A stretch of 64,000 nucleotides of DNA from an uncultured Planctomycetota bacterium (GTDB lineage: Bacteria > Planctomycetota > Planctomycetia > Isosphaerales > Isosphaeraceae): the NCBI GenBank assembly GCA_963845755.1, contig CAWJTV010000028.1:256001-320000 (forward strand). Direction: 5' to 3'. Positions 312-55,742 of the stretch are shown here, in pieces; position 1 is the first letter of the stretch; the number at the start of each line of letters is the position of its first letter. Position numbers and translations under genes: made by a program. The notes beneath the pieces are model-generated. The model saw only the letters and a list, made by a program, of their open reading frames with translations. It searched no databases and was not told the origin of the DNA.

Positions 312-467
312 CCTAACGCGGCCTTCGGCCGCAACCCAATCGGGATTCCCGATTCGCGATTCCGGATTCCCGAAGGGGAATGATCCGGGAATCCGGAATC
401 GCGAATCCGGAATTCGGAATCCCCAGAGGTGCGCAGGGCGCCGGGATCCTACGGAGGAAGACTCTAC
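312..467 (+). repeat. ~155-bp composite palindromic repeat (element A), copy 1
   Basis: CCTAACGCGGCCTTCGGCCGCAACC head, GATTCNN/GAATCNN heptamer inverted core, CCCCAGAGG...CCTACGGAGGAAGACTCT tail; near-identical to 567-720 and to the reverse complement of 30441-30596. Confidence 0.95.
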
Positions 468-8002: not shown

Positions 8003-9383
8003 ATGGAAACGCCCTTGTCTGCCTCTGCGGCAACTGGTTACTCGCGCCGCGCCTGGCTGCGCCGGGGCGCCGTCTCCTGGTTGGGGCTGAACTTCGCGGA
8101 CATGCTGCGATGGCGGGCCGAGGCTTCACCGCGCAAGGGTCGACCGATCCGCGGAGTGATCCTGGCGTTCTGTCCCGGTGGACCGAGCCACCTGGAGACC
8201 TTCGACCCCAAACCGAACGCACCGCGGGAGATCCGGGGTGAGTTCGACACGATCGCCACGGCACTTCCCGGCGTCCGGTTCGGGGAGCATCTTCCGAACC
8301 TGGCGCAGCGGCTGGATCGATTGACCGTGGTGCGCTCGATGACGACCACTAGCCCCGTGCACGAGCTGGCGGTGCACCGGCTCCTGGGCGGCGTTACCGA
8401 ACCGCCGTCGGGGACGGGCGTCGCCGCGACCCGGAATGACCGCCCGCACCTCGGTGCCGTGGTGGCCGCGGCGCGGCAACCCGGCCAGGGGATTCCCCCC
8501 GCAGTGATCTTGCCGACCCGGTTGACTTTCGAAGGGACGACATTTCCGGGTCAGAATGCCGGCTTCCTCGGGGCGCGCTATGATCCCTGGCACCTGGTCG
8601 GCGACCCCTCCGATCCCCGATTCGCGGCGTCCGTGCTGGAGATGCCCGCGGAGATCTCCATGGCGCGGAGTCGCGAGCGATTGGACTTGCTCGGCCTGGT
8701 CGATCGACAGCGCCGGGAGTTCGACCGCGAGCGGTCGGTCCAGGACTTCGACGTCTTCCGACGCCGGGCGATGGACGTCCTGGCTTCGGGGGAGTGCCGG
8801 CGCGCCTTTGGCCTGGAGAGGGAGGACCCGCGCCCGCGATCGGTACGGACGGACGCTGATGGGCCAAGGGCTGCTCCTGGGCCTCCGCCTGGTGGAGGCC
8901 GGCGTACCGCTGGTGCAGGTCAACCTGGGTGATTCGAACGTCTGGGATACGCACGAGAACAATTTCGGACGGCTCAAAGGCATTCTACTTCCTCCGTTCG
9001 ATCGGGCGGTCTCGGCGCTGGTCGACGACCTGGAGCGGCGCGGACTCTGGGAAGAGGTGCTGGTGATCGTGACGGGCGAGTTCGGCCGGACCCCGCGCGT
9101 CGGCCAGCCGATCAAGGGGGGGGCCGGGGCCAAGCCCGACGGCCGCGATCACTGGCCGGGCGTTTTCAGCCTGCTGGCCTTCGGTGCCGGCGTCGCGCGG
9201 GGACAGGTCCTCGGCGCCAGCGATCCTCTCGCTTCCTTCCCCAGGTCGGCCGCCGTCTACTCTCCCGCCGACCTGGCCGCCAACGTGCTCGAGGCCCTGG
9301 GTATCGATCTCACGGGTACCTTGACCGATGCCCTGGGCCGGCCGTTCCCCGTCAATTCCGGGACGCCGATCCCTTGGGCGTGA
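8003..9383 (+). CDS. DUF1501 domain protein (frameshift ~8832)
   Basis: 'SRRAWL' Tat-like motif, 'GGPSHLETFDPKP', 'WDTH', 'GEFGRTP', 'GRDHWP'; joins ORFs 8003-8932 and 8556-9383. Confidence 0.9.
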
Positions 9384-13772: not shown

Positions 13773-14473
13773 ATGGTAACGGACTCCGAGGAAGGTCGGA
13801 CCAACGAATTCGGGGACATGGCCAACAACGATCTCGCCAGCGATCTGCCGGACGACCTGCGCGCCGGGTCAAGGGCGAGCTCGACCCGGGCGAGCGCTTG
13901 TTGTGGGCTTCCCGCTCCTATCCTCCGTTTGTCCGCCCGATCGCGGGACACTTCATCGCGAGTGCAATCGCGCTACTCCTCCTGATCGGTGGGGTTCTCG
14001 TCATCACCCTCGCCTGGAAAGAATTGCGAACCCATGACAATCCGAATCCCACGATGCCCTTCGGGATTATTCTCTGCGTTGCGAGTGGCGTGACGATGCT
14101 GGGGACGATCGCCCACTGGATCGGGATCTCGCACGAACAACGCCGGCGATCCGGCGCCTACTACGCGGTAACCGACCGTCGTGCGATCGTCTGGATTCCC
14201 GAGCCGAAGTCCGATGCGATCAGGGTTATTCTGCTGCCCAAAGGGCAGATCGAAGGCGTGCTGCGCATCGAGCCGCCGGATGGCTCTGGCACCCTGGAGC
14301 TTTCCTGCCCGAACTCTCCAGTGGGTATACCCTGGTATCCTTTCGGTTTCCAGCACATTCACGATGTGCGTCGCGTCGAGCACATCGTGCGGGAAAATCT
14401 CATCACGGCGAAGGAAGGGTCGGCGCGAAAGGCCATCCGACCCGGAGATAACGATTACGAACCATTGTTTTGA
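13773..14473 (+). CDS. two-TM membrane protein with PH-like domain, paralog 1 (frameshift ~13863)
   Basis: 'ELDPGERLLW', two TM helices, 'YAVTDRRAI', 'DGSGTL', 'IHDVRRVE'; GGAGG RBS. Confidence 0.75.
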
Positions 14474-14533
14474 TGATCGATAGAATCGATGGGGCTGTGT
14501 CGTCGAAATGGCGAACCGGCCTGGAGCCGTCCG

Positions 14534-15184
14534 ATGATAACAGATTCCGCCGAATCTCGAACCAAGGACTTTAGCGACATGGCCGGCGACGATCTCGCTG
14601 GCGATATGCCGGACGATCTGCGCCGCCGAGTCGAGCGCGAGCTCGAGCCGGGCGAACGGTTGCTCTGGGCGGGCGTCTCCTCGCCCCCTTCCGCGTCCAT
14701 CGGGGGCGGATACATCGTGGCAAGTACGGTCGCGTTGACCCTCCTGGTGGGAGGAGCCGTGATGATCGTCGCCGGCACACTAGACACCAGGGTGTATATC
14801 CATCGGGATTCTCCGATCCAGTTCGGGATTCTTCTTTGTATCCTGGCCTTCCTGACCATGATCGGGACGATCGCCGCCTGGTTCGGTGCGCGAGGTGAAC
14901 GGCGCCGGCAATCGACCGTCTCCTACGCCATCACCGATCGGCGCACCATCCACTGGCAGCCGGAACCGAACTCGGATGCCGTCCGCCTTGTGTACCTGCG
15001 ACGTGGCGAAATCCAGCGCGTGGTCCGGATTGAGCGTCCGGACGGTTCTGGCAGCCTCGAGTTCCGGCGGGCGGAGCACATGAACTACTACTCCGGTTCC
15101 AACACATTCAAAGACATACTCGACGTGCGTCGCGTCGAGCAGATCGTCCGGAACAACTTGATGAACGACGAGAAGACCGGCTGA
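14534..15184 (+). CDS. two-TM membrane protein with PH-like domain, paralog 2
   Basis: 'ELEPGERLLW', 'YAITDRR', 'DGSGSL', 'ILDVRRVE'. Confidence 0.8.
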   Translation: MITDSAESRTKDFSDMAGDDLAGDMPDDLRRRVERELEPGERLLWAGVSSPPSASIGGGYIVASTVALTLLVGGAVMIVAGTLDTRVYIHRDSPIQFGILLCILAFLTMIGTIAAWFGARGERRRQSTVSYAITDRRTIHWQPEPNSDAVRLVYLRRGEIQRVVRIERPDGSGSLEFRRAEHMNYYSGSNTFKDILDVRRVEQIVRNNLMNDEKTG

Positions 15185-15223
15185 GTGGAATTCCGACTCG
15201 GCCAGAGCGAATCGAGGTTCGAG

Positions 15224-15902
15224 ATGCCGGCGGATCCTGGAGAGACGATCATCGGCACCCCGTCGGGCACCGGCGGCGAAAGTCAGGTCGGCGACCTGAC
15301 CGACGATCAGCGCCACCGCACTCAAGGCCGAACTCGCACCGGGCGAGCGAATCCTCTGGGTGGAGCGGGCGGGTGCACCGCCGACACCCACGATCGGCGT
15401 GTTTCCGGCCCTCTTCGCGTCGGTCATTTGCGGCTCCAGCGGCTTCGCCTTGATGGTCCTGTTCGGAATCTATGGTGCCCGCAACCGGCATCCGGCCGAG
15501 ACGGTGTTCTTGCTCTGCCTGCCACCGGCCGCGATCGGCGCCGTGACGGCGATCGGACTCATCGGGCGCTGGGCCCACCACGAACGGACGAAATGGCGCC
15601 TCTCGCGGACGTTTTATGCCCTGACCGATCGGCGGGCGATCGTCGGGTCGGATTCGCGGAGTACCGGCGAGGTTGCCATCGGTTTCTTCACCCGCGAGAT
15701 GTTCGATGACACCCGTTGCATCGAATACGGTAACGGCTCGGGAGACGTGTTTTTCGTGAGCCATGATGACGTCGTCTGGCCGGAGTGGGGCTTCCTCGGC
15801 ATCTCCGCCTCGAAGCATGTGGAAACCCTGGTACGGCAGGTTCTGCTCGGCAAAGGCCCGGTCGTCGGGTCCGAAGAATCGGCGGGAATCGACTGTCCGT
15901 GA
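15224..15902 (+). CDS. two-TM membrane protein with PH-like domain, paralog 3 (frameshift ~15315)
   Basis: 'ELAPGERILW', 'YALTDRRAI', 'NGSGDV', 'KHVE'. Confidence 0.72.
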
Positions 15903-21586: not shown

Positions 21587-23417
<1,831 letters not shown>

Positions 23418-26434: not shown

Positions 26435-28297
26435 TCAAGGAGACGCAGGGAGGCGCCGGATGGTGACGTCGAGCGGCCCGGCGGTCGCGCGATTGCCCTC
26501 GACCCAGGCTTCGAAGCGGCCCGTCCCCGCGGTGAAAGGGACGTCCCGGAAGGTGCACTCGGACGCCTCGCGATCGAGCTTCAGCTCGCGTTCCACGCCC
26601 CGAATTGTCAGGTGCACAACCGTCGGGAAGCGTCGGGGCGTGAGGCGCAGGGACACGTCGAACCGGCCGTCACGGACCACCACGACCTCCCAGTGGCCCA
26701 GGTCATTGACGCCCCAGCCGGAGCGAGGTCCGCGCCAATCCTGACGCGTCAGGATGGTCGGGTTTTCCCGATCGCCGCCGATGGCGATGCGGATCGGCCC
26801 GAACCCGCGCGACGAGGAGACGTCCTTGAACCAGTCCAGGTACTCCGCGTGCATTTTCTCGACAATCTGGGGCACTTTCGCGGCGAGATCATGCTCCTGC
26901 CAGGGGTCGCTCTCCATCTCGTAGAGCTCCAGCGGGGGGACCTTGAGATTGCCGAGCGGGGGCTCGCGGCGCAGGAGCGAATACTTCTGAGAACGCGCGG
27001 CGAACGCGCGATCGGGCTGGGGCTGGTCTCCGCGATGCCACTGGAAGAAAAGCGTACGGTCGGGCCAGGCGACTTCCGGCGCCCCGCTCAGGAGCGGCAT
27101 GAGGCTCCGGCCATCGAAACGGAGGCCGGCCGGCGGCGAGACGCCGCAGGCCTCCAGCAAGGTCGGGGCGATGTCGATATGGGCGGCGATCCGATCGACG
27201 ACCCGTCCCGCCGGGAAATGGCCGGGCCAGCGGATGTAGCAGGGGACGTGGATCCCTCCCTCGTAGACCGTCCCCTTCCAGCCGCGGAGGCCCGCGTTGA
27301 AACGAACGTTGGCCGGGCCGTTATCGGTGAGGAAAATGACGATCGTGTCTCGAGCCAGCCCACGCGCCTCGAGGGCGGAGAGGACTCGGCCCACGTTCGA
27401 GTCGATGTTCGTGATCATCGCGTACACCTTGGCGATCGCCTCAGTGGGGCTGATCGACGAGGCGGGGATCGGCCGGCCGAGTTGCGGAAACTCGCCGGGC
27501 GCGAGGCTGACCGAGCGATAGGACTCCAGCTCGGCCTTGGGGGCCTCCAGCGGTTCGTGGGGGCAGTTGAACGCCAGGTAGGCGAAGAAGGGGCGGTCGC
27601 TGGGCGTGCCCAGGAACTCCATGGCCGCGGTGGTGTAGACGTCGCTGCAATAACCCTGGCACTTCTGCGACTGGCCATTGTGTTGCAACACCGGGTCGTG
27701 ATAGTGACTGCCGCCCGGCGGGTCGGACGCCTGACCGATGCCGCCGCCTCGGATGACCAGCGCCTCCTGGAAACCCTGATCGATAGCTCGCAACGGCGCA
27801 TTATCGCCCAGGTGCCATTTGCCGAAGATCCCGGTCCGATAGCCGGCCGCCGCGAGCATCTCGGCGAGCGTCTGCTCATCCGGGTGCATCAACGAGCGAC
27901 CCGCGTAAGTATCCACGACGCCGGTGCGGTAGTTATACCGACCGGTCATCAGGCTGGCCCGGGTCAGAGAGCAGACGGGCGAGACGTAAAACGACTTGAG
28001 CCGCACGCTCTCGCGGGCAAATCCATCCAGGTGCGGAGTCCGGATCTTGGGATTGCCGTGGAATCCCAGGTCGCCGTAGCCCTGATCGTCGGTCATGATC
28101 AGAAGGATGTTGGGACCGCTCGCGGTCGTCGCCCCCTTCGCACTCGCGCCGATCGTCGAGAGCGATAGACACGCAATGCATGTGAGCCGCTCGAGGCGCC
28201 CACGAATCCCGGTGCCAAGCACGGTGCTTCTCCCCTCTGCGAAACTCAAAGAGATCGTCCCGAGCGTCACGATTACCTCGGCTGGAGGATCTCCCAT
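26435..28297 (-). CDS. arylsulfatase (start uncertain)
   Basis: 'NILLIMTDDQGYGD', 'CSLTRASLMTG', 'GKWHLG', 'TDNG', 'KGTVYEGG'. Confidence 0.93.
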   Translation of the reverse strand: MGDPPAEVIVTLGTISLSFAEGRSTVLGTGIRGRLERLTCIACLSLSTIGASAKGATTASGPNILLIMTDDQGYGDLGFHGNPKIRTPHLDGFARESVRLKSFYVSPVCSLTRASLMTGRYNYRTGVVDTYAGRSLMHPDEQTLAEMLAAAGYRTGIFGKWHLGDNAPLRAIDQGFQEALVIRGGGIGQASDPPGGSHYHDPVLQHNGQSQKCQGYCSDVYTTAAMEFLGTPSDRPFFAYLAFNCPHEPLEAPKAELESYRSVSLAPGEFPQLGRPIPASSISPTEAIAKVYAMITNIDSNVGRVLSALEARGLARDTIVIFLTDNGPANVRFNAGLRGWKGTVYEGGIHVPCYIRWPGHFPAGRVVDRIAAHIDIAPTLLEACGVSPPAGLRFDGRSLMPLLSGAPEVAWPDRTLFFQWHRGDQPQPDRAFAARSQKYSLLRREPPLGNLKVPPLELYEMESDPWQEHDLAAKVPQIVEKMHAEYLDWFKDVSSSRGFGPIRIAIGGDRENPTILTRQDWRGPRSGWGVNDLGHWEVVVVRDGRFDVSLRLTPRRFPTVVHLTIRGVERELKLDREASECTFRDVPFTAGTGRFEAWVEGNRATAGPLDVTIRRLPASP

Positions 28298-28570
28298 GAT
28301 ACGACGCGCGCGGCGACTGACGGTATCCGTCTCCCCTCAACGGTCAAGTCGTCGTCCACGACGGGCCGCCGGACTCCTCCCGGAATGCCCCGAGACCCCG
28401 GGCGGGAACGCGATGGAGGGGTTCGCAATCCCCCGGCGAAATTTTTTTGCGGAAATTTTTATGTCCTGATCTTGTCAAGAGTTGCATCGAGAGATTGTCG
28501 TCATTCGGCGCTAGTTGCATTAACGCTTTTGGAAAGTTGCGGCATCCTGAGAATAGAGCCCACCTCCGTC

Positions 28571-28668
28571 AGAGTCTTCCTCGGCAGGATCCCTGCGCGT
28601 CGGTGCGTCCTGGGGATCCGTGATTTCGGGTTTATCGCTATTGGGTTGCGGCCGAAGGCCGCGTGAGG
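28571..28668 (-). repeat. element A, degenerate copy 4 (heptamer core largely lost)
   Basis: AGAGTCTTCCTCGGCAGGATCCCTGCGC...CTGGGGAT...ATTGGGTTGCGGCCGAAGGCCGCGTGAGG matches both ends of element A in reverse. Confidence 0.85.
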
Positions 28669-28677
28669 AGCAGCAAA

Positions 28678-30081
28678 GTGCGCCAGGCCCTTGAACGCTT
28701 CCGGGCGCGGATCGCCCGGATCGAAGAGGAACCGATCCTGTCAGACCAGTCCGGTGATGTCGCGAGCTTCGATTGGTACGGCGAATCTTGCCCGTGCGGC
28801 CTGCCGCCGGGGGAGTGCCGGGTGCATCCCCGCGCGCGGCTCTCCCAGCGGCCGCCGGCCGGCGACTGGCGAACCTTGCTGGTCCTGGCCGGCCGCGGCT
28901 GGGGGAAGACGCGCGCCGGCGCCGAGTGGGTCCGCAGCCTGGCGGAGTCGCGCCAGGCTCGACGGATCGCCCTGGTGGCGTTGACCGCCTCCGATGCCCG
29001 CGACGTCATGATCGAGGGAGAATCCGGCATCCTCGCGATCAGTCCGCCGTGGTGCCGGCCGACCTATGAACCGTCCCGGCGGCGGTTGACCTGGCCCGGC
29101 GGAACGATCGCCACGACCTATTCCGCGGATGAGCCCGAAAGGTTGAGAGGCCCCCAACATGAGGCGGCCTGGGTCGACGAGGTCGCGTCCTGGCGCAAGC
29201 CTCAGGCCTGGGACAACCTGATGTTCGGACTGCGGCTCGGGGTGAATCCGCGTGTCTGTGTCACGACGACCCCCAAACCCGTTCGACTGATCAAGGCCCT
29301 GCTGGCCGATCCCATGACGGTCCTCGTCAGGGGCTCGACGCATGAGAACCGGCCGAACCTGGCGCCGGAGTTCTTCGAGAGAATCGTGGCCACCTACGAA
29401 GGGACGCGCCTGGGCCAGCAGGAGATCTATGCCGAGATTCTGGACGTCAGCGATGGCGCCTGGTTCACCGGGTTCAACGTTGCCAGGCACGTCACCGAGA
29501 AGGCCGAGTACGATTACCGATTCCCCGTGCACCTCGCCATCGACTGCGGCGTCTCCCGGCACGTCGGCGCCGTGTTCTTCCAGGTCCGCGAGATCGGGCC
29601 CAATAAGCATCGCGTCACCGTCTTCGGCGACTACCACGCTCAGGGGCTGGTCTCCGAGGCGAACGCCAGGCGGATCAAGGCGCGCGCCGAGGAACTGCCG
29701 TGCCGCGGTCAGATCCACACGGTCCGCCTCGACCCGGCCGCGAGCGCACGCACCGGCATCGGCCCGGCGGCCTACGGTGAGTTCGAGCGCATCTTCGGCT
29801 CGCGGATCACGGAGCGGTGGCCGAGCCACCGGGTGGTCGACGGCCTCGATCAGATCGAGATCCTGCTCGATACGGACTGTTTGCTCATCCATCCGCGCTG
29901 CATCGCTTTGAAAACGGCCTTCCAGAACTATGCCCGCGCCCAGCGCGGCGGCGAGTGGCTGGACGAGCCGGCGCAAGAGCACCCCCACGAGGACCTGATG
30001 GACGCGCTCCGGGGCGGCATCCGCGACAGGTTCCCCGGCGGCCGGATCGAGCAACCCAGCTTTCGTACCGTCCGCTTCTAA
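28678..30081 (+). CDS. phage-type terminase large subunit (orphan)
   Basis: 'ARLSQRPP' Q-motif, Walker A 'AGRGWGKT', 'LRGPQH', Walker B 'WVDE', 'TTTP', 'RLGQQEIYAE'; nuclease acidic motifs 'AIDCG', 'LDPAA', 'EDLMDA'; AGGAG 7 nt before GTG 28678. Confidence 0.9.
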   Translation: MRQALERFRARIARIEEEPILSDQSGDVASFDWYGESCPCGLPPGECRVHPRARLSQRPPAGDWRTLLVLAGRGWGKTRAGAEWVRSLAESRQARRIALVALTASDARDVMIEGESGILAISPPWCRPTYEPSRRRLTWPGGTIATTYSADEPERLRGPQHEAAWVDEVASWRKPQAWDNLMFGLRLGVNPRVCVTTTPKPVRLIKALLADPMTVLVRGSTHENRPNLAPEFFERIVATYEGTRLGQQEIYAEILDVSDGAWFTGFNVARHVTEKAEYDYRFPVHLAIDCGVSRHVGAVFFQVREIGPNKHRVTVFGDYHAQGLVSEANARRIKARAEELPCRGQIHTVRLDPAASARTGIGPAAYGEFERIFGSRITERWPSHRVVDGLDQIEILLDTDCLLIHPRCIALKTAFQNYARAQRGGEWLDEPAQEHPHEDLMDALRGGIRDRFPGGRIEQPSFRTVRF

Positions 30082-30113
30082 GAGCGCCTAAAACGACCCG
30101 GACCCTCACAGTT

Positions 30114-30437
30114 CTTGACCCTTTTCCCTTGAGGAGTTAAACCACGAAATACACGAAATACACAGGGTGAAGGAGATGGAGAGCCGATTCTCGATTATTT
30201 TAAGTTTCGTTTTTTTCGAGACTGTAGCAACGGAACCGGGCTCAGGAAGGAAGGCCTCGTCCTCACACCATCGGGATCCTCGTTCCCATGCTCTGCGTGG
30301 GAACGTCCGGGTGCGACGCTCCGCGTCGCCGGGGCCGCAGAGCGGCCAAGACGGCATTCCCACGCAGGAGCGTGGGAACGAGTTCCTATCACCCGGTCTC
30401 GTTGCTAGAGACTCTTTTTTTCGTGTAATTCGTGGTT
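30114..30437. repeat. element B arms (30140-30163 and 30418-30437) with the same left flank as at 745-770
   Basis: CTTGACCCTTTTCCCTTGAGGAGTTAAACCACGAAATACACGAAA compared with CTTGACTTCGTTCCCTCAAAGAGTTCAACCACGAAATCCACGAAA; right arm TTCGTGTAATTCGTGGTT. Confidence 0.8.
30279..30382. repeat. REP-like palindromic element C (CTCGTTCCCA...TGGGAACGAG)
   Basis: Terminal inverted repeats CTCGTTCCCATGCTCTGCGTGGGAAC and ATTCCCACGCAGGAGCGTGGGAACGAG, each able to form its own hairpin. Confidence 0.85.
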
Positions 30438-30440
30438 AGA

Positions 30441-30596
30441 GTAGAATCTTCCTCCGTAGGATCCCTGCGCCCTCCGCGCCTCTGGGGATTCCGAATTCCG
30501 GATTCGCGATTCCGGATTCCCGGATCCTTCCCCTTCGGGAATCCGGAATCGCGAATCCGGAATCCCGATTGGGTTGCGGCCGAAGGCCGCGTTAGG
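30441..30596 (-). repeat. element A, full copy 3
   Basis: Reverse complement is near-identical to 312-467. Confidence 0.95.
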
Positions 30597-30679
30597 AGTT
30601 CAAGGGACCAGCCGGCCCGACTATGATGGGGTAATGGACTCGGGCGGGCCTCATCCCGGTAAAGTGTGAGCTTCTTCTG

Positions 30680-31834
30680 ATGAATGCCTTCGTCCGCATC
30701 ATAACCTCGGAGGGCCGCGGCGCGATCGCGGTCGTGCGCGTATGGGGAGAGCGAGCGGTTGCGGTCGTGGATGCCGTCTTCCGGCCATCGCGGGGAAACT
30801 CGCTGGCGGAAACGCCGCCAGGCCGGTTGCGGCTGGGACGATCGGGGCTCGGCCGGGGCGACGAAGTCGTCGCCGTGCGGATCCCCGCTGTGACACCGAC
30901 CGTGGAAATTCAGACTCACGGAGGGACCGCGGCTGTCCGATCGGTCGTTTCGGCCCTTGAGGCGGCGGGGGCGCTGACCTGGACCGGCAGCGAGTCGGGG
31001 TCGAAGTCGTCCGATGATCCGATCGCCGCCCAGGCCCTCGTCGACCTGCCCCAGGCGCCGACCTTGCGCACCGCAGAGATCCTGCTGGATCAGGCGCAAG
31101 GCGTTCTTCGGGGAGAGCTGGACCGGCTGCGCCTCGAAATGCAACTTGGGACAGGATCGACCCTGGCCAGACTCGACGCGCTGATCGGCCGAGCGGATGT
31201 CGGTCTGAGGCTGATCGACGGATGGAAAGTTGTCATCGCGGGCCGGCCTAATGTCGGAAAGAGCCGGTTGTTCAACGCATTGGCCGGCTTCGCGCGGGCG
31301 ATCGTTGACCCGACGCCGGGCGTGACGCGGGACATCGTGACCTTCCGAACCGCCGTGGACGGCTGGCCCGTGGAACTTGCGGACACGGCGGGACTCCGCG
31401 GGACCGATGATGCCATCGAGCGCATGGGGGTCGCGCGCGCTCGACGCCAACAACAAGAGGCGGACCTTGTCCTCCTGGTCCTCGACCGATCCGAGTCCCT
31501 CCAGCCGATGGATCGCGAGTTGATCGGATCGAACGCACGCGCCCTGTTGGTGGCGAACAAGTCCGACCTGCCCCCTGCCTGGGATTCGTCCGAGGACTGC
31601 GCGGGGTTCCCCGCCATCGCGATGGTCTCGGCCGAGTGCGGCACGGGGGTCTCGGGGTTGGTCGCCACGATCGCCGAACGGCTCGTGCCCAACCCTCCCT
31701 CTCCCGGAGAGCCCGTGCCGTTCCGAGCCGATCACCTGAGGGACCTGGAAGCGGCTCGTGCCTGTCTGTCGGCCGGGAATCGTGCCGGTGCTGAGAGTTG
31801 GCTGGCGGCGATCGGAGGCGCCGTACCGCGGTGA
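30680..31834 (+). CDS. MnmE/TrmE-like GTPase (short, lacks the C-terminal FCxGK motif)
   Basis: 'GRGAIAVVRV', 'EIQTHGG', G1 'GRPNVGKS', G2 'PGVTRD', G3 'DTAG', G4 'NKSD'. Confidence 0.85.
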   Translation: MNAFVRIITSEGRGAIAVVRVWGERAVAVVDAVFRPSRGNSLAETPPGRLRLGRSGLGRGDEVVAVRIPAVTPTVEIQTHGGTAAVRSVVSALEAAGALTWTGSESGSKSSDDPIAAQALVDLPQAPTLRTAEILLDQAQGVLRGELDRLRLEMQLGTGSTLARLDALIGRADVGLRLIDGWKVVIAGRPNVGKSRLFNALAGFARAIVDPTPGVTRDIVTFRTAVDGWPVELADTAGLRGTDDAIERMGVARARRQQQEADLVLLVLDRSESLQPMDRELIGSNARALLVANKSDLPPAWDSSEDCAGFPAIAMVSAECGTGVSGLVATIAERLVPNPPSPGEPVPFRADHLRDLEAARACLSAGNRAGAESWLAAIGGAVPR

Positions 31835-38293: not shown

Positions 38294-40844
38294 ATGACAA
38301 CGCTTCCGATCGAGGCATGCCTACCTGCGATCCGAGAGGGACTCGCAACGGGGTCCTTGGTCGTCGTTGCGCCACCCGGCTCGGGGAAGACGACCCGGTT
38401 GCCGGCAGCCCTCCTCGACTCGGGATTGCTGCCCCCGCAGCATCCGAAAGTCCTCGTGCTCCAGCCGCGACGGATCGCGGCGTGCGCGGCCGCCGCGCGG
38501 GTTGCGGAGGAGCGGGGCTGGGCCCTCGGCGGTCCGGTGGGCTACCAGGTCCGTTTCGAGCGGAGGGTCGGCCCGGCGACCCGACTCCAGTTCGTCACGG
38601 AGGGAATCCTGACCCGGCAGCTCCTGGCCGATCCGTTCCTGGAGACCGTCGGCGCGGTGGTCCTCGACGAGTTTCACGAGCGGAGTCTACAGACGGACCT
38701 GGCGCTCGCCTTGCTGCGCGAGGTCCGGCACGACGTGAGGCCCGACCTGATCCTCCTCGTCATGTCGGCGACCCTCGACGCCGAGCCGGTGGCCCGCTTC
38801 CTGGGAAGTTGTCCGATCGTGCATGCCGAAGGGCGGTCGTATCCGGTCTCGATCGAATACTGCCCCAAAGACCGACCTGCCAGCGCCGAGGTGCTGGTTC
38901 CGCTTGTCGAGCAATGGTTGGACGAGCCCGGCGGCAGTGGTCATCTGCTGGTCTTCCTGCCCGGGATGGCGGAGATCCGGCGAGCGGCCGTTCGGTTGGG
39001 ACCGTCGGCGGAACGAGCCGGCGCGCTGGTGCTGCCACTGCACGGCTCTCTCACGTCCGACGAACAGGATCGCGCCTTACGGCCGGGTCCGCAGCGTAAG
39101 ATCATCCTGAGCACTAATGTTGCGGAGACCTCGCTCACGATCGACGGCGTGGATACGGTCATCGACAGCGGCCTGGTCCGATCCGTGCGATTCGATGCCG
39201 GCCGGGGAATCGACCGATGGCACCTGGGCCGGATCAGCCGCGCCTCGGCCGATCAACGCGCGGGACGCGCAGGACGTACGGGCCCTGGCCGTTGCATCCG
39301 CCTCTGGTCGGAGCGCGAGGAACGGGGATTGTCCGCCTTCGAGGAGCCGGAGGTCCACCGGGTCGATCTCAGCGGGACCGTGCTGGCCTTGCATTCCTGG
39401 GGCATCAACGATCCGATGAGGTTCGGTTGGTTCGACTCCCCATCGGCCGATCGGCTCGCCGCAGCCGAACGTCTCTTGGACCTGCTGGGGGCCGTCGAAG
39501 GTGATCCCGCACGGATCACCGAGTTGGGTCGCCGGATGCTCGACCTCCCGGTCCATCCCCGGCTGGCGCGGCTGATCCTGGAGACCGCCGACCGCGGCCG
39601 GCTGCGCGAGGGGGCCGCGGTCGCCGCGTTGCTCTCGGAGAAGGAAATCCTGATGCGCGAGTCCGGTTCCGCCGAGCGAGGAGCGAGAATCCGAGAGGTC
39701 GCGAGCGCTCCGTCCGACGTCCTCGTGCGGCTCGACGCGCTGGTCGAGGCGGGCTCGGCCCGTTTTTCCCCGTCCTTGCGGTCCCGGGGCATCGATCCGG
39801 CCGCCGCACGTCAGGTGGCCAGGCTCCGCGATGAGTTGGTCCGTCTGGGCCGGCGGGGCGTTCGTGGCGGTGAGTTCGACCGAGACCCATCAGACTCAAG
39901 AGGACGAGGCGATCCTCAAAGCCCTCTTGCTGGCCTATCCCGATCGCCTGGTCAAGCGGCGCGGTGCTGAGAGGACCGGAGTGATGGTCGGCGGCCGCGG
40001 GGTCCGGCTGGCGCCCGGCTCGGTCGTCCGCGATGCCGAGCTCTACCTGGCGATCGGCGCACGCGAGGACCGACGCGGCGATCAGCTCGCCGTGCACGTC
40101 GACCTGGCGAGCATCGTCCGGCGGGAATGGCTCGAGGAGCTTCACCCTCATCGCTTGAGGCGCGAGCGAGTGAGCCGCTACGACACCACGCGGAATCGAG
40201 TCATCAGCTCAACCCAGCTCTGGTTCCTGGACCTCTTGATCCGCGAGGATCTCCTCCCGGACGTGGACGACGATGAGGCCAGCAAGCTCCTGGCCGAGGC
40301 CCTGAGACCGGACTTTGCGCGCTTCTTCCGCGAGAACTCTCGGATCGCGGCCTGGCTGGCTCGCGTCGAGTTCCTCCGACAAGCCGTGCCCGAATCGAAC
40401 TGGCCGGTCTTCGACGACCTCGCCTTTGGAGACATCCTCGAGCAGATCTGCCGAGGGAAGAGCACGGTCGAGGAAGTGCGACGGGTCGACCTCCTCGCGT
40501 TCTTGCAGGGCCGGCTGGATGCAAAGCAGCTTCGCGAACTCCGCGAGAGCGCCCCGGAGTCCGTCGCGCTGCCGAGTGGACGCCGGGTCACGCTGGCCTA
40601 CGAACAGGGCCGTCCTCCCGTCCTCGCCGCCCGCCTCCAGGACCTCTTCGGCTGGACCGAGACCCCACGCCTGGCGCGGGGGCGAATCCCCGTCCTGCTG
40701 CACATCCTCGGTCCCAACCATCGACCGGTCCAGATCACCAACGATCTCCGCAGTTTCTGGACGACCACCTACCATCAGGTCCGCAAAGACCTTCGCGGCC
40801 GATATCCCAAGCACGCATGGCCTGCTGATCCTTTGAATTCCTAG
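38294..40844 (+). CDS. hrpB: ATP-dependent helicase HrpB (frameshift ~39885)
   Basis: 'GSGKTT', 'DEFHER', 'MSAT', 'TNVAETSLTI', 'QRAGRAGR', C-terminal 'RGRYPKHAWP'. Confidence 0.95.
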
Positions 40845-54345: not shown

Positions 54346-55742
54346 ATGGAGAAGGCGCGTCAAGGAGGATTGCGGATCCTGTACGCCGATGATGAGTCCC
54401 ATCTTCGGGACTTGATGCAGATTGAATTGCCCCGGCTGGGGCATGAGGTCACGGTCTGTCCCGATGGAACGGCCGCACTGCGCGCGCCTGGAACGCGGCC
54501 TCTACGACGCCGCTCTGCTGGATTTGCGAATGCCCGGTTTGACCGGCATCGAGGTCCTGGGACAGATCCGACAGATCAGTCCGGAGACCCAGGTCATCAT
54601 CCTGACGGGTCATGCCACCGTCAACACGGCCGTCCAGGCGCTTCGACTAGGTGCGTTCGACTATCTGACCAAGCCCTGCAAGTGGGCGGAACTGGAGGTC
54701 ATTCTCACCCGCGTCGCCGAGCGCCGCGACATGGCCAACAAGGCCGTGGCCCTGGAGACCCGGCTCAAAGCCGCCGAAGGATCACCCCTGCTGATCGGCG
54801 AGACTCCGGCCATGCAGCAAGTGCGCCGGCTGATTGAAACGATCGCGCCCACGGACGCCTCCGTCATGATTCTCGGCGAGACCGGAACGGGCAAGGAGCT
54901 GGTGGCACGCAGCCTTCACGACAAGAGCCGGCGATCCGAGCGTGCCTTCATCCCGGTTAATTGCGGTGCGCTGCCGGAGAACCTGGTCGAGAGCGAACTC
55001 TTCGGCCACCGCAAAGGTGCCTTCACGGGTGCCGACGCACATCGCAAGGGACTTTTCGAGGTGGCCAACGGAGGAACGCTGTTCCTCGACGAAGTGGGCG
55101 AGCTGGACAAGAGCGTTCAGGTCAAGCTCTTGCGGTTCCTGGAATCGGGCGAGATCCGCCGCGTCGGCGAGAATGAGCCATTCCGGGTCGATGTGCGCGT
55201 GCTCTGTGCCACCAATCGCGATCTGCGCGACATGGTCGCCGGCGAATCGTTCCGCGAAGACCTGTTCTTCCGGCTCAATACCTTCGAGATCGACCTGCCT
55301 CCTCTGCGCACGCAAGGGCGACATCGTCGCCTTCGCGCATCACATGCTCGCTCGTTACGCCTCACGGCGCGGACTGAGTCAATCGACGATCAGCCCGGAC
55401 TCCCTCGATGTTCTTCAGAATCACGACTGGCCCGGGAACATTCGTGAGCTGGGCAATATGATCGAACGCGCCACGATCCTCGCGGGCGATGGGGCTATCC
55501 TGCCCGAACACCTGCCGACTCAGCTCCCGATCCGCGGCAAGGCCCACCCGACCGCCGCGTCGTCCATCGGCCCTCCTCATTTCCAGATCCCGGAAGGGAC
55601 TCCGACCCTCCGCGACATCGAGATGAAGTACATCCAGGCCATCCTGGAGAAACACAACGGCAACAAGCCGGCGGCCGCGCGGGAACTGGGCATCAGCCTC
55701 AAGACGCTCTACAACAAGATCAATCAGCTTCAGCATAGTTGA
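54346..55742 (+). CDS. NtrC/AtoC-type sigma-54 response regulator (frameshifts ~54488, ~55310)
   Basis: Receiver 'LLDLRMPG', 'GETGTGKE', 'GAFTGA', 'FLDEVGE', 'WPGNIREL', Fis-type HTH. Confidence 0.95.

Follow-up and report, generated by a model that had tools for sequence, protein, structure and literature searches.

A solitary large-terminase gene among housekeeping genes of an Isosphaeraceae genome, possibly a stranded member of a family of terminase cassettes

How does an intact gene for the large subunit of a phage-type terminase (TerL) come to lie alone in a bacterial chromosome, and might it still be of use there? The question is raised by a stretch of 64 kb, here called the window, from an uncultured planctomycete of the family Isosphaeraceae (GenBank assembly GCA_963845755.1, contig CAWJTV010000028.1, positions 256,001 to 320,000). 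The assembly, designated G000, comprises 14.27 Mb in 49 contigs and is 88% complete, and the window corresponds to G000:C28:256001-320000. With a probability that we put at roughly one half, the window TerL would be a stranded copy of a terminase cassette, made up of genes for the small and large subunits (terS and terL) and belonging to a lineage labeled c0, and it would possibly serve in trans a head-tail gene cluster resident elsewhere in the same genome. The features of the gene are listed below in window coordinates; invariance refers to an alignment of 30 sequences, which consisted of database relatives and copies from the family.

28663-30081, plus strand: TerL open reading frame (ORF), uninterrupted, 472 amino acids (aa) from the GTG at 28663.
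28678, plus strand: GTG, the probable true start of TerL, giving 467 aa and lying 7 nt after AGGAG.
28666-28670, plus strand: AGGAG, Shine-Dalgarno-like, the final 5 bases of repeat A1 (see below).
28789-28827, plus strand: possible zinc knuckle, C43-x-C45...C52-x2-H55, a putative metal site upstream of the ATPase domain.
28891-28911, plus strand: Walker A motif, GRGWGKT, residues 77-83 (G77, R78, G81, and K82 invariant).
29170-29181, plus strand: Walker B motif, WVDE, residues 170-173 (W170, D172, and E173 invariant).
29263-29271, plus strand: coupling (C) motif, TTT, residues 201-203 (T201 and T203 invariant).
29404-29460, plus strand: interdomain linker (residues 248-266), coincident with the mosaic junction; predicted local distance difference test score (pLDDT) of <50.
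29461-30078, plus strand: nuclease (RNase H-like) domain, with D294, D357, and D447 invariant.
29542-29544, 29731-29733, and 30001-30003, plus strand: acidic nuclease residues D294, D357, and D447, respectively.

The ORF at 28663-30081 encodes a genuine TerL with both domains intact. It matched Pfam Terminase_6N (PF03237) above the cutoff (1.9e-24, residues 74-273) and phrog_2, annotated as terminase large subunit (7.5e-23, residues 63-461). A reading made from the sequence alone (the sequence-only reading) had described a frameshift-free terminase with intact ATPase and acidic nuclease motifs, and this description was confirmed by the ORF, by both family matches, and by the invariance of the motif residues. 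A search of NCBIfam with TerL returned nothing, and a single-sequence search of the PDB (phmmer) gave 0 matches; a profile was needed, and the profile built from the 30-sequence alignment aligned the three ATPase motifs, P-loop included, to T4 gp17 (5.2e-05). The AlphaFold2 model (mean pLDDT, 79.7; predicted template-modeling score, 0.52) consisted of two domains and a low-confidence linker. The top Foldseek ranks were held by the full-length TerLs of D6E, T4, Sf6, and HK97, and the C-terminal half matched the folds of the SPP1 G2P and P22 nuclease domains. Within the putative zinc knuckle, C43, C52, and H55 were invariant and C45 was nearly so among the 30 relatives, while the stretch corresponded to a gap in the alignment with a phage TerL from IMG/VR and was absent from that phage relative.

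Some other genes of the window were truncated or split in Pfam coordinates (8808-9383, 21587-23011, 39831-40844, and 54464-55447). A DUF1501 protein matched profile positions 214-383 of 390 only, TypA lacked its GTPase domain, HrpB was recognized by its C-terminal domain alone, and a sigma-54 activator had a cut receiver domain. Such truncated housekeeping genes, which reflect either assembly indel errors or real decay, bear on the weight to be given to a frameshift-free terL.

In the 64 kb, TerL is alone, with no phage neighbor. Genes were called with a home-made codon-bias caller (56 genes), and their starts are hence approximate. Pfam identified the left neighbor of TerL as a sulfatase (2.7e-56) and the right neighbor as a GTPase with TrmE_N and MMR_HSR1 domains, in agreement with the earlier placement of the gene between an arylsulfatase and an MnmE-like gene. 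Among 44 called proteins and a set of 7 immediate neighbors, Pfam recognized housekeeping functions such as ArgRS, RsfS, TypA, LexA, RNase H, and AccD, as well as kinases and the sulfatase with its maturase. PHROGs assigned none of 19 further or unassigned window proteins to a head, tail, or packaging family, 0 matches were produced in the window by tblastn with the genome's own head-tail cluster proteins, and no other phage genes, integrase, or att-like ends were detected in the 64 kb by the Pfam, PHROGs, and tblastn scans. TerL is linked to no terS, portal, or capsid gene in the window. The absence of small terminase, portal, capsid, and integrase genes, noted earlier for the 64 kb, was thus confirmed, but for the portal and the capsid it does not extend to the genome, in which a different contig, C11, has genes for a portal, a scaffold, and a capsid of the SU10 type.

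Comparison with related genomes identified TerL as a lineage-specific insertion that is private to G000. The MnmE-like gene was single-copy in 114 of 121 family genomes, and it was the direct divergent neighbor of the sulfatase in six of eight relatives (G046, which belongs to the same genus, and G062, G033, G032, G071, and G069); the remaining two had no sulfatase beside it. The gaps between the two genes in the relatives measured ~180-1090 nt except in G032 (3.6 kb), where the gap holds a repeat-rich gene of 731 aa that, judged by eye and without a profile search, may be TPR/sulfotransferase-like. None of the six sulfatase-MnmE-like intervals contained TerL or TerS. DNA homology between G000 and G046 stopped at window position 28346 and resumed at 30668, which delimits the following stretch.

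28347-30667, no strand assigned: stretch without counterpart in the same-genus genome G046, comprising the insertion and a nest of repeats.

The host genes on either side are undamaged, and similarity to G046 sets in again no more than 50 nt and 12 nt away from them. Because the intergenic sequence is not conserved, no precise empty site could be defined. An empty site bearing a single copy of the repeat termed element A had been proposed as a check; in six of the eight relatives the interval held no terminase, but the same-genus interval contained no element A.

Matches to TerL were found in 96 of 120 other genomes of the family and fell into two classes. The first, present in 30 of the 120 genomes, mostly large ones, comprised full-length or ATPase-containing relatives (best E, 1e-69 or better), often in multiple copies and with TGA stops or split frames. 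The second, present in nearly all genomes, comprised one ORF of ~520-600 aa that matched residues 263-470 only. Contexts of the first class were sampled as 20 kb around the full-length copies of 17 relatives and three further copies from G000. The sole recurrent neighbor was a gene of 100-160 aa directly upstream on the same strand, which was seen at 15 of the 20 loci and at one more by hidden Markov model. It was recognized as terS through a match to phrog_2538 (small terminase) in three of four tested members. DNA homology between cassette loci extended from the start of terS to the stop codon of terL, and the other neighbors were different ordinary host genes at each locus. Since Pfam was blind to the portal of this family, the loci were rechecked with the cluster's own proteins, and in 12 of the 17 relatives' contexts TerL was the sole gene related to the head-tail cluster. 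The view that the terminase is uncoupled from a head operon was therefore upheld, both by its stand-alone position in the window and by the cassette family among host genes.

Matches to TerL and to the portal, split high-scoring segment pairs included, numbered 14 and 4 in G040, 13 and 2 in G039, 9 and 1 in G070, and 7 and 1 in G069, respectively, and G000 itself has four TerL loci and one fragment versus one portal and one capsid gene. No flanking sequence was common to the window copy and the terminase loci of relatives. The cassette type of terS was present in 0 of 149 cases beside phage relatives of the ATPase half, alphaproteobacterial relatives of that half, or cluster loci. Among close relatives, the copies G069:C2, G037:C17, G068:C172, G070:C20, G034:C21, and G062:C493 lacked terS. 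The nearest relatives of the window TerL, G033:C4 and G034:C21, are ORFs of 706 and 893 aa with an N-terminal extension of ~360 aa before Terminase_6N; Pfam recognized neither an intein nor any further domain in the extension. In G033, terS is moreover duplicated in tandem.

By its sequence relationships, TerL is a hybrid of a cosmopolitan Terminase_6N motor half and a nuclease half confined to this bacterial family. Residues 18-266 shared 59% identity with the TerL of an IMG/VR viral contig, with similarity ending at 266, and residues 265-470 shared 45% with the cluster TerL of G069, with similarity beginning at 265. The IMG/VR and G069 proteins had no similarity to each other, and the mosaic junction coincided with the modeled interdomain linker. 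Relatives of the ATPase half occurred in 162 IMG/VR stretches; a portal lay downstream in all five large contigs examined (5/5), from adjacent to several genes off, and three of the five also contained head genes. One further IMG/VR contig (L059, 9863-19352) has two TerL genes ~1.9 kb apart upstream of one portal, and one of the two might be an invading terminase module. TerL was matched by 152 of 50,697 phage records, all in the ATPase half and 0 covering 80% of the protein, and the nuclease half had 0 matches in these records; a scan of IMG/VR with the nuclease half, by a method that detects close relatives only, found no relative. In a collection of one genome per species, the sole full-length relative was from a Planctomycetota metagenome-assembled genome, and the other 53 matches covered the ATPase half only and were mostly from Alphaproteobacteria, at up to 68% identity. 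The ATPase-half relatives outside the planctomycetes were phages and alphaproteobacterial genomes, with 47-68% identity in the N-terminal domain only. These relatives may be compatible with the earlier remark that the N terminus resembles that of terminases of gene transfer agents (GTAs).

A phylogeny was built for each of the two domains. In the ATPase-domain tree, the window TerL and 20 family copies were split from 73 IMG/VR sequences by a branch with 99% SH-aLRT support, and the nearest sequences to the window copy were from another genus (G033 and G034; 77% over the domain), not from G046. In the nuclease-domain tree, 23 c0 copies formed one side of a branch with 100% support and had the cluster TerLs of the large-genome genera as their neighbors (87% support; root uncertain).

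The second class of matches led to a conserved row of co-oriented genes in 14 of 14 sampled genomes, in the order small gene, TerL-like gene, portal, scaffold, capsid, and further genes. The corresponding cluster of G000 and the other terminase loci of this genome, as recovered in a genome-wide search for portal, capsid, and TerS genes and for TerL paralogs, are as follows.

C11, ~139-168 kb: head-tail cluster of G000, with portal (phrog_145, 4.4e-33), scaffold (phrog_206, 6.3e-10), and major head protein (phrog_1328, 1.2e-12).
C11:142240-142635: fragment of the cluster TerL, matching residues 273-413 only at ~45% identity.
C11:108922-111396, minus strand: second c0 TerL, with upstream terS, interrupted past Walker B by an intein that contains an HNH endonuclease.
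C4:66871-68397, minus strand: intact cluster-type TerL, 508 aa, at a contig end (phrog_2, 1.2e-12).
C44:67676-70669 region and C26:82601-83014: solitary terS-like genes.

The search thus placed the portal and the capsid on C11 and terS-like genes on C11, C26, and C44, together with further TerLs. A whole-genome Pfam search with PF04860, PF05065, PF05133, and PF06074 had given 0 matches (the PF06074 control also matched nowhere), and the notion that G000 has no structural genes was overturned by the C11 portal, which has no Pfam match and was found through synteny and PHROGs. The C11 cluster also encodes head-closure-like and tail/baseplate-like proteins, and in the cluster of another genome the capsid matched Pfam SU10_MCP (1.6e-40) and a later gene encoded a podophage fiber (Gp80). 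The portal was present in 92 of 120 other family genomes, with identities from 89% downward, and in 37 of 47 high-quality family genomes, G000 included; it was absent from the same-genus genome G046. In the rest of the phylum, it was found in 7 of 400 sampled genomes, at 25-29% identity. The C11-type cluster is described here as a candidate GTA or long-domesticated podophage, and it may instead be a very successful prophage or something else.

The second c0 TerL on C11 had intein matches (Hint_2, HNH_3, and Intein_splicing), with one frame change inside the insert, and Vint and intein domains were also present in TerL relatives from the databases. The C4 TerL has no portal near it and adjoins D-serine dehydratase-like genes. 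The cluster TerLs of related large genomes are 71-85% alike among themselves, but the C4 protein shares only 55-57% identity with them. The terS on C44 adjoins two genes that are 29-38% identical to genes of the C11 cluster and, since it lies next to them, is probably with them the remnant of another cluster copy.

On the interpretation favored here, c0 would exist in this planctomycete family mainly as a free-standing terS + terL cassette among unrelated host genes. Once its host lineage had separated from the sister species, the window copy would have entered the sulfatase-MnmE-like interval, its terS would have been lost or never transferred, and the element-A repeats beside it would not be its movers. 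If active, the window TerL would dock in trans on the resident C11 portal, cut DNA, and pump it into procapsids. Such an unlinked TerL, of which the window copy is an instance, would be needed in G000 because the cluster terL there is reduced to a fragment, and the nuclease half shared with the cluster TerLs suggests that portal docking would be shared as well. In G062, a c0-type TerL occupies the position of the cluster TerL, immediately adjoining the orthologs of the portal, scaffold, and capsid genes, an arrangement suggesting that c0 enzymes can serve the cluster particle. The predicted complex of the TerL nuclease half with the C11 portal had a score of 0.00, which gives no verdict and is evidence neither way.

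Signs of selection were sought in pairwise comparisons (Nei-Gojobori) of the window TerL with eight relatives. The ratios of nonsynonymous to synonymous substitution (dN/dS) were 0.21-0.38, not near 1, with no phage remnants nearby, and indicate purifying selection over the c0 lineage; six of the eight aligned relatives had 0 internal stops and two had one each. The terminal branch of the window copy was not elongated (0.14-0.15 in both domain trees).

Several observations weigh against this interpretation. The synonymous distances (dS, 0.84-1.34) were near saturation, so that dN/dS speaks for the whole lineage and says little about what the window copy has undergone since it inserted, the closest relatives available being 81% identical. 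Neither terS nor a remnant of it was found beside the window TerL (best score, -0.2 bits versus 152 bits for the positive control), and a TerL without its small subunit may be inert. At 5 of the 17 relatives' loci, cluster genes were present (the full cluster in G062, scaffold-like pieces in G046 and G040, and a portal 6-9 kb off in G029 and G030), and part of the pattern could therefore be the decay of whole cluster copies. Many c0 copies are pseudogenes, and the C37 copy of G000 is broken by one TGA and frameshifts. The cassettes showed no signs of mobility in the form of terminal repeats, target duplication, an integrase or transposase, or near-identical copies at two sites. The C4 TerL, likewise intact and unlinked, could serve the cluster just as well. 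A search of sequencing runs, finally, returned no RNA run containing the TerL sequence.

The main rival explanation is that the window gene is a dead-end relic, that is, a cassette that inserted recently, lost its terS, has no role, and is intact only through youth. We regard this explanation as somewhat unlikely but as one to be taken seriously. It is favored by the missing terS, by the frequency of degraded copies in the family (with TGA stops and split matches, as well as the broken C37 copy), by the lack of RNA runs with the gene, and by several close subclade relatives that are likewise without terS. It is opposed by the retention of all residues that are invariant across the 30 sequences and by a terminal branch no longer than those of its neighbors. 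The copies without terS recur as intact ORFs in several genomes, which hints at retention, and the truncated cluster terL of G000 leaves a vacancy.

A more ambitious version, which we consider improbable, would make the terS-terL cassettes an as yet undescribed kind of minimal selfish packaging element that joins a motor half from a foreign phage to a nuclease and docking half from the family's SU10-like, GTA-like particle, commandeers resident capsids, and so spreads; the window copy would by now be the working packaging enzyme of the G000 particle.

The gene could also be all that is left of a whole prophage, or of a second copy of the head-tail cluster, which stood at this site until deletions reduced it to one gene. 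Partial clusters do occur beside c0 TerLs elsewhere (scaffold-like in G046:C2 and G040, and full in G062), and C44 of G000 holds a terS with two cluster-like genes. We nevertheless hold this origin to be improbable, as further phage-related sequence was detected neither in the 2.3-kb interval nor elsewhere in the 64 kb, the host genes on both sides are intact with sister homology resuming so close to them, and random decay would leave lone portals or capsids equally often, whereas terminases are the amplified part.

Highly improbable is an anti-phage device, either a decoy or a nuclease that disturbs the packaging of invading phages. The patchy, multicopy distribution would suit such a device, as would the position of some cassettes near genes of toxin-antitoxin or BREX-like type (HicB/ParE, PIN, BrxA/BrxB, and Uma2). 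The 5027 PADLOC models, however, gave 0 matches to TerL, two TerS proteins, and the C4 TerL, and most cassette neighbors are housekeeping genes. The dominant-negative decoy proposed by the sequence-only reading also fits poorly with catalytic motifs that are fully kept.

There remain the repeats on either side of TerL, which had been read as two same-orientation copies of element A and as the possible means by which the gene was moved. The TerL interval is a nest of five short dispersed repeats, two of which are element-A members.

28505-28563, no strand assigned: dispersed repeat family, 35 genomic copies covering ≥70% of its length.
28571-28670, plus strand: repeat A1, a partial or variant element A, in which only the 28-nt 5' module and the 37-nt 3' hairpin module are common to both repeats.
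30082-30218, no strand assigned: dispersed repeat family, 6 copies covering ≥70% of its length.
30215-30415, no strand assigned: dispersed repeat family, 12 copies covering ≥70% of its length and 128 high-scoring segment pairs, with 99%-identical copies on other contigs.
30441-30598, plus strand: repeat A2, a canonical element A, with an inverted repeat of 33 nt at its center and a GC hairpin at its 3' end.

A1 and A2 agree in orientation and in their end modules, the 5' module (28 nt; 28571-28598 and 30443-30470) at 89% and the 3' hairpin module (37 nt; 28634-28670 and 30562-30598) at 92%. Their middles differ (35 nt versus 93 nt), and the description of two flanking copies must be amended to the extent that A1 is a partial copy. 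A2 has 202 genomic copies covering ≥70% of its length, 79 of them at ≥90% identity, while no other copy in G000 covers ≥70% of A1, which is unique as a whole. Element A is ~156 nt long, and G000 has 77 exact matches to its 20-nt core, or 192 when ≤2 mismatches are allowed. Of these 192 cores, 185 are intergenic, and they show no orientation preference toward neighboring genes. Co-oriented downstream genes start ≤30 nt from the core in 10 of 88 cases, so that the supply of AGGAG to TerL is no general property of the element. Matches in relatives numbered 49 in G046, 26 in G062, 15 in G034, and 0 in each of G033 and G069. A search of 27800-31000 against Rfam gave no family at the gathering score, with sub-threshold hairpin look-alikes only. 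Element A resembles REP/MITE-like repeats in being short, hairpin-rich, mostly intergenic, present in many near-identical copies, and shared with relatives, but its two ends do not form an inverted pair and it has no Rfam family. Neighboring copies <300 nt apart numbered 39 genome-wide, all in the same orientation and often in short tandem arrays; one such pair, on the minus strand, lies at window positions 318-461 and 573-716, 255 nt apart.

The flanking of TerL by element A is incidental, and long intergenic stretches of G000 collect such repeats. Gaps of 1-3 kb between neighboring element-A copies numbered 5, against 5.03 expected (Poisson), and three of the five joined copies of the same orientation; the element is thus so abundant that a flanked gene is expected by chance. 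Two other intervals between element-A copies hold ordinary genes (those for an FAD-binding monooxygenase/oxidoreductase, an FkbM methyltransferase, and a 542-aa protein without Pfam match), and a DUF1810 gene lies just outside one of the two. The core was found within 3 kb of 0 of 6 other terminase-related (TerL/TerS) loci of G000. Four soil-metagenome runs yielded short, low-depth contigs that cover parts of TerL exactly and contain no joints, and at this depth they are uninformative on excision and expression. Mobilization of a cassette through recombination between the flanking element-A copies, or through their transposition, is hardly credible despite the same-orientation modules on both sides, given the partial A1, the chance-level spacing, the unflanked terminase loci and ordinary contents elsewhere, the lack of joints, and the fact that neither a second A-TerL-A copy nor an empty site with a single element A was found.

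Several known systems invite comparison. The window TerL is like the Terminase_6N enzymes of the T4 gp17 type (D6E, T4 gp17, Sf6 gp2, and HK97) in its combination of an ATPase with an RNase H-like fold, its aligned motifs, and its invariant acidic nuclease residues. It differs from them in standing outside a head-morphogenesis operon with no adjacent terS, in having a nuclease half without phage counterpart in the records searched, and in its extra Cys/His knuckle.

RcGTA is siphophage-like. The resident cluster differs from it in being podophage-like (SU10-type capsid and Gp80 fiber). A further comparison is with GTAs in general, and with RcGTA and its terminase in particular (see PMC6854486 and PMC7947584). 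In the window TerL, as in these agents, a packaging enzyme of phage origin has persisted in a bacterial chromosome, and the relatives of its ATPase half include many alphaproteobacterial genomes. The head-tail cluster of the family is also GTA-like in its distribution across the family as opposed to the rest of the phylum and in its conserved gene order, a pattern that resembles vertical inheritance. Unlike a GTA terminase, the window TerL lies outside any cluster as a lineage-specific insertion and belongs to a lineage that is multicopy and often broken.

Phage satellites of the SaPI/PICI type use a small terminase of their own to redirect the packaging of a helper. The cassettes are similar in being a minimal packaging module apart from the structural genes that it would need, but they have no integrase, replication module, or repressor, they carry the large subunit too, and in place of an infecting phage their helper would presumably be a conserved cluster on the chromosome. 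Among titles and the starts of abstracts, with subscription journals lying outside the search, nothing was found on terminase cassettes or GTA-like clusters in Planctomycetota, and no papers were found on an orphan, standalone, or domesticated terminase.

If the favored interpretation is correct, a planctomycete family of large genomes would have a vertically inherited podophage-like cluster, and this cluster would be a candidate GTA outside the known groups. A swarm of free-standing cassettes that combine resident and foreign enzyme halves would represent a new route by which packaging specificity evolves, the cassettes would possibly form a new class of satellites, and the question of who packages what in these bacteria would become directly testable. 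Should the window TerL be a mere relic, the idea of a repeat-borne cassette would still be corrected, and lone terminases would be a recurrent pattern in these genomes, neither annotation noise nor a sign of a nearby prophage.

Elsewhere in the window, three adjacent paralogous genes (13898-15902; 191, 216, and 180 aa) had no Pfam or PHROG match and, to judge from our own inspection of their translations, may encode membrane proteins.

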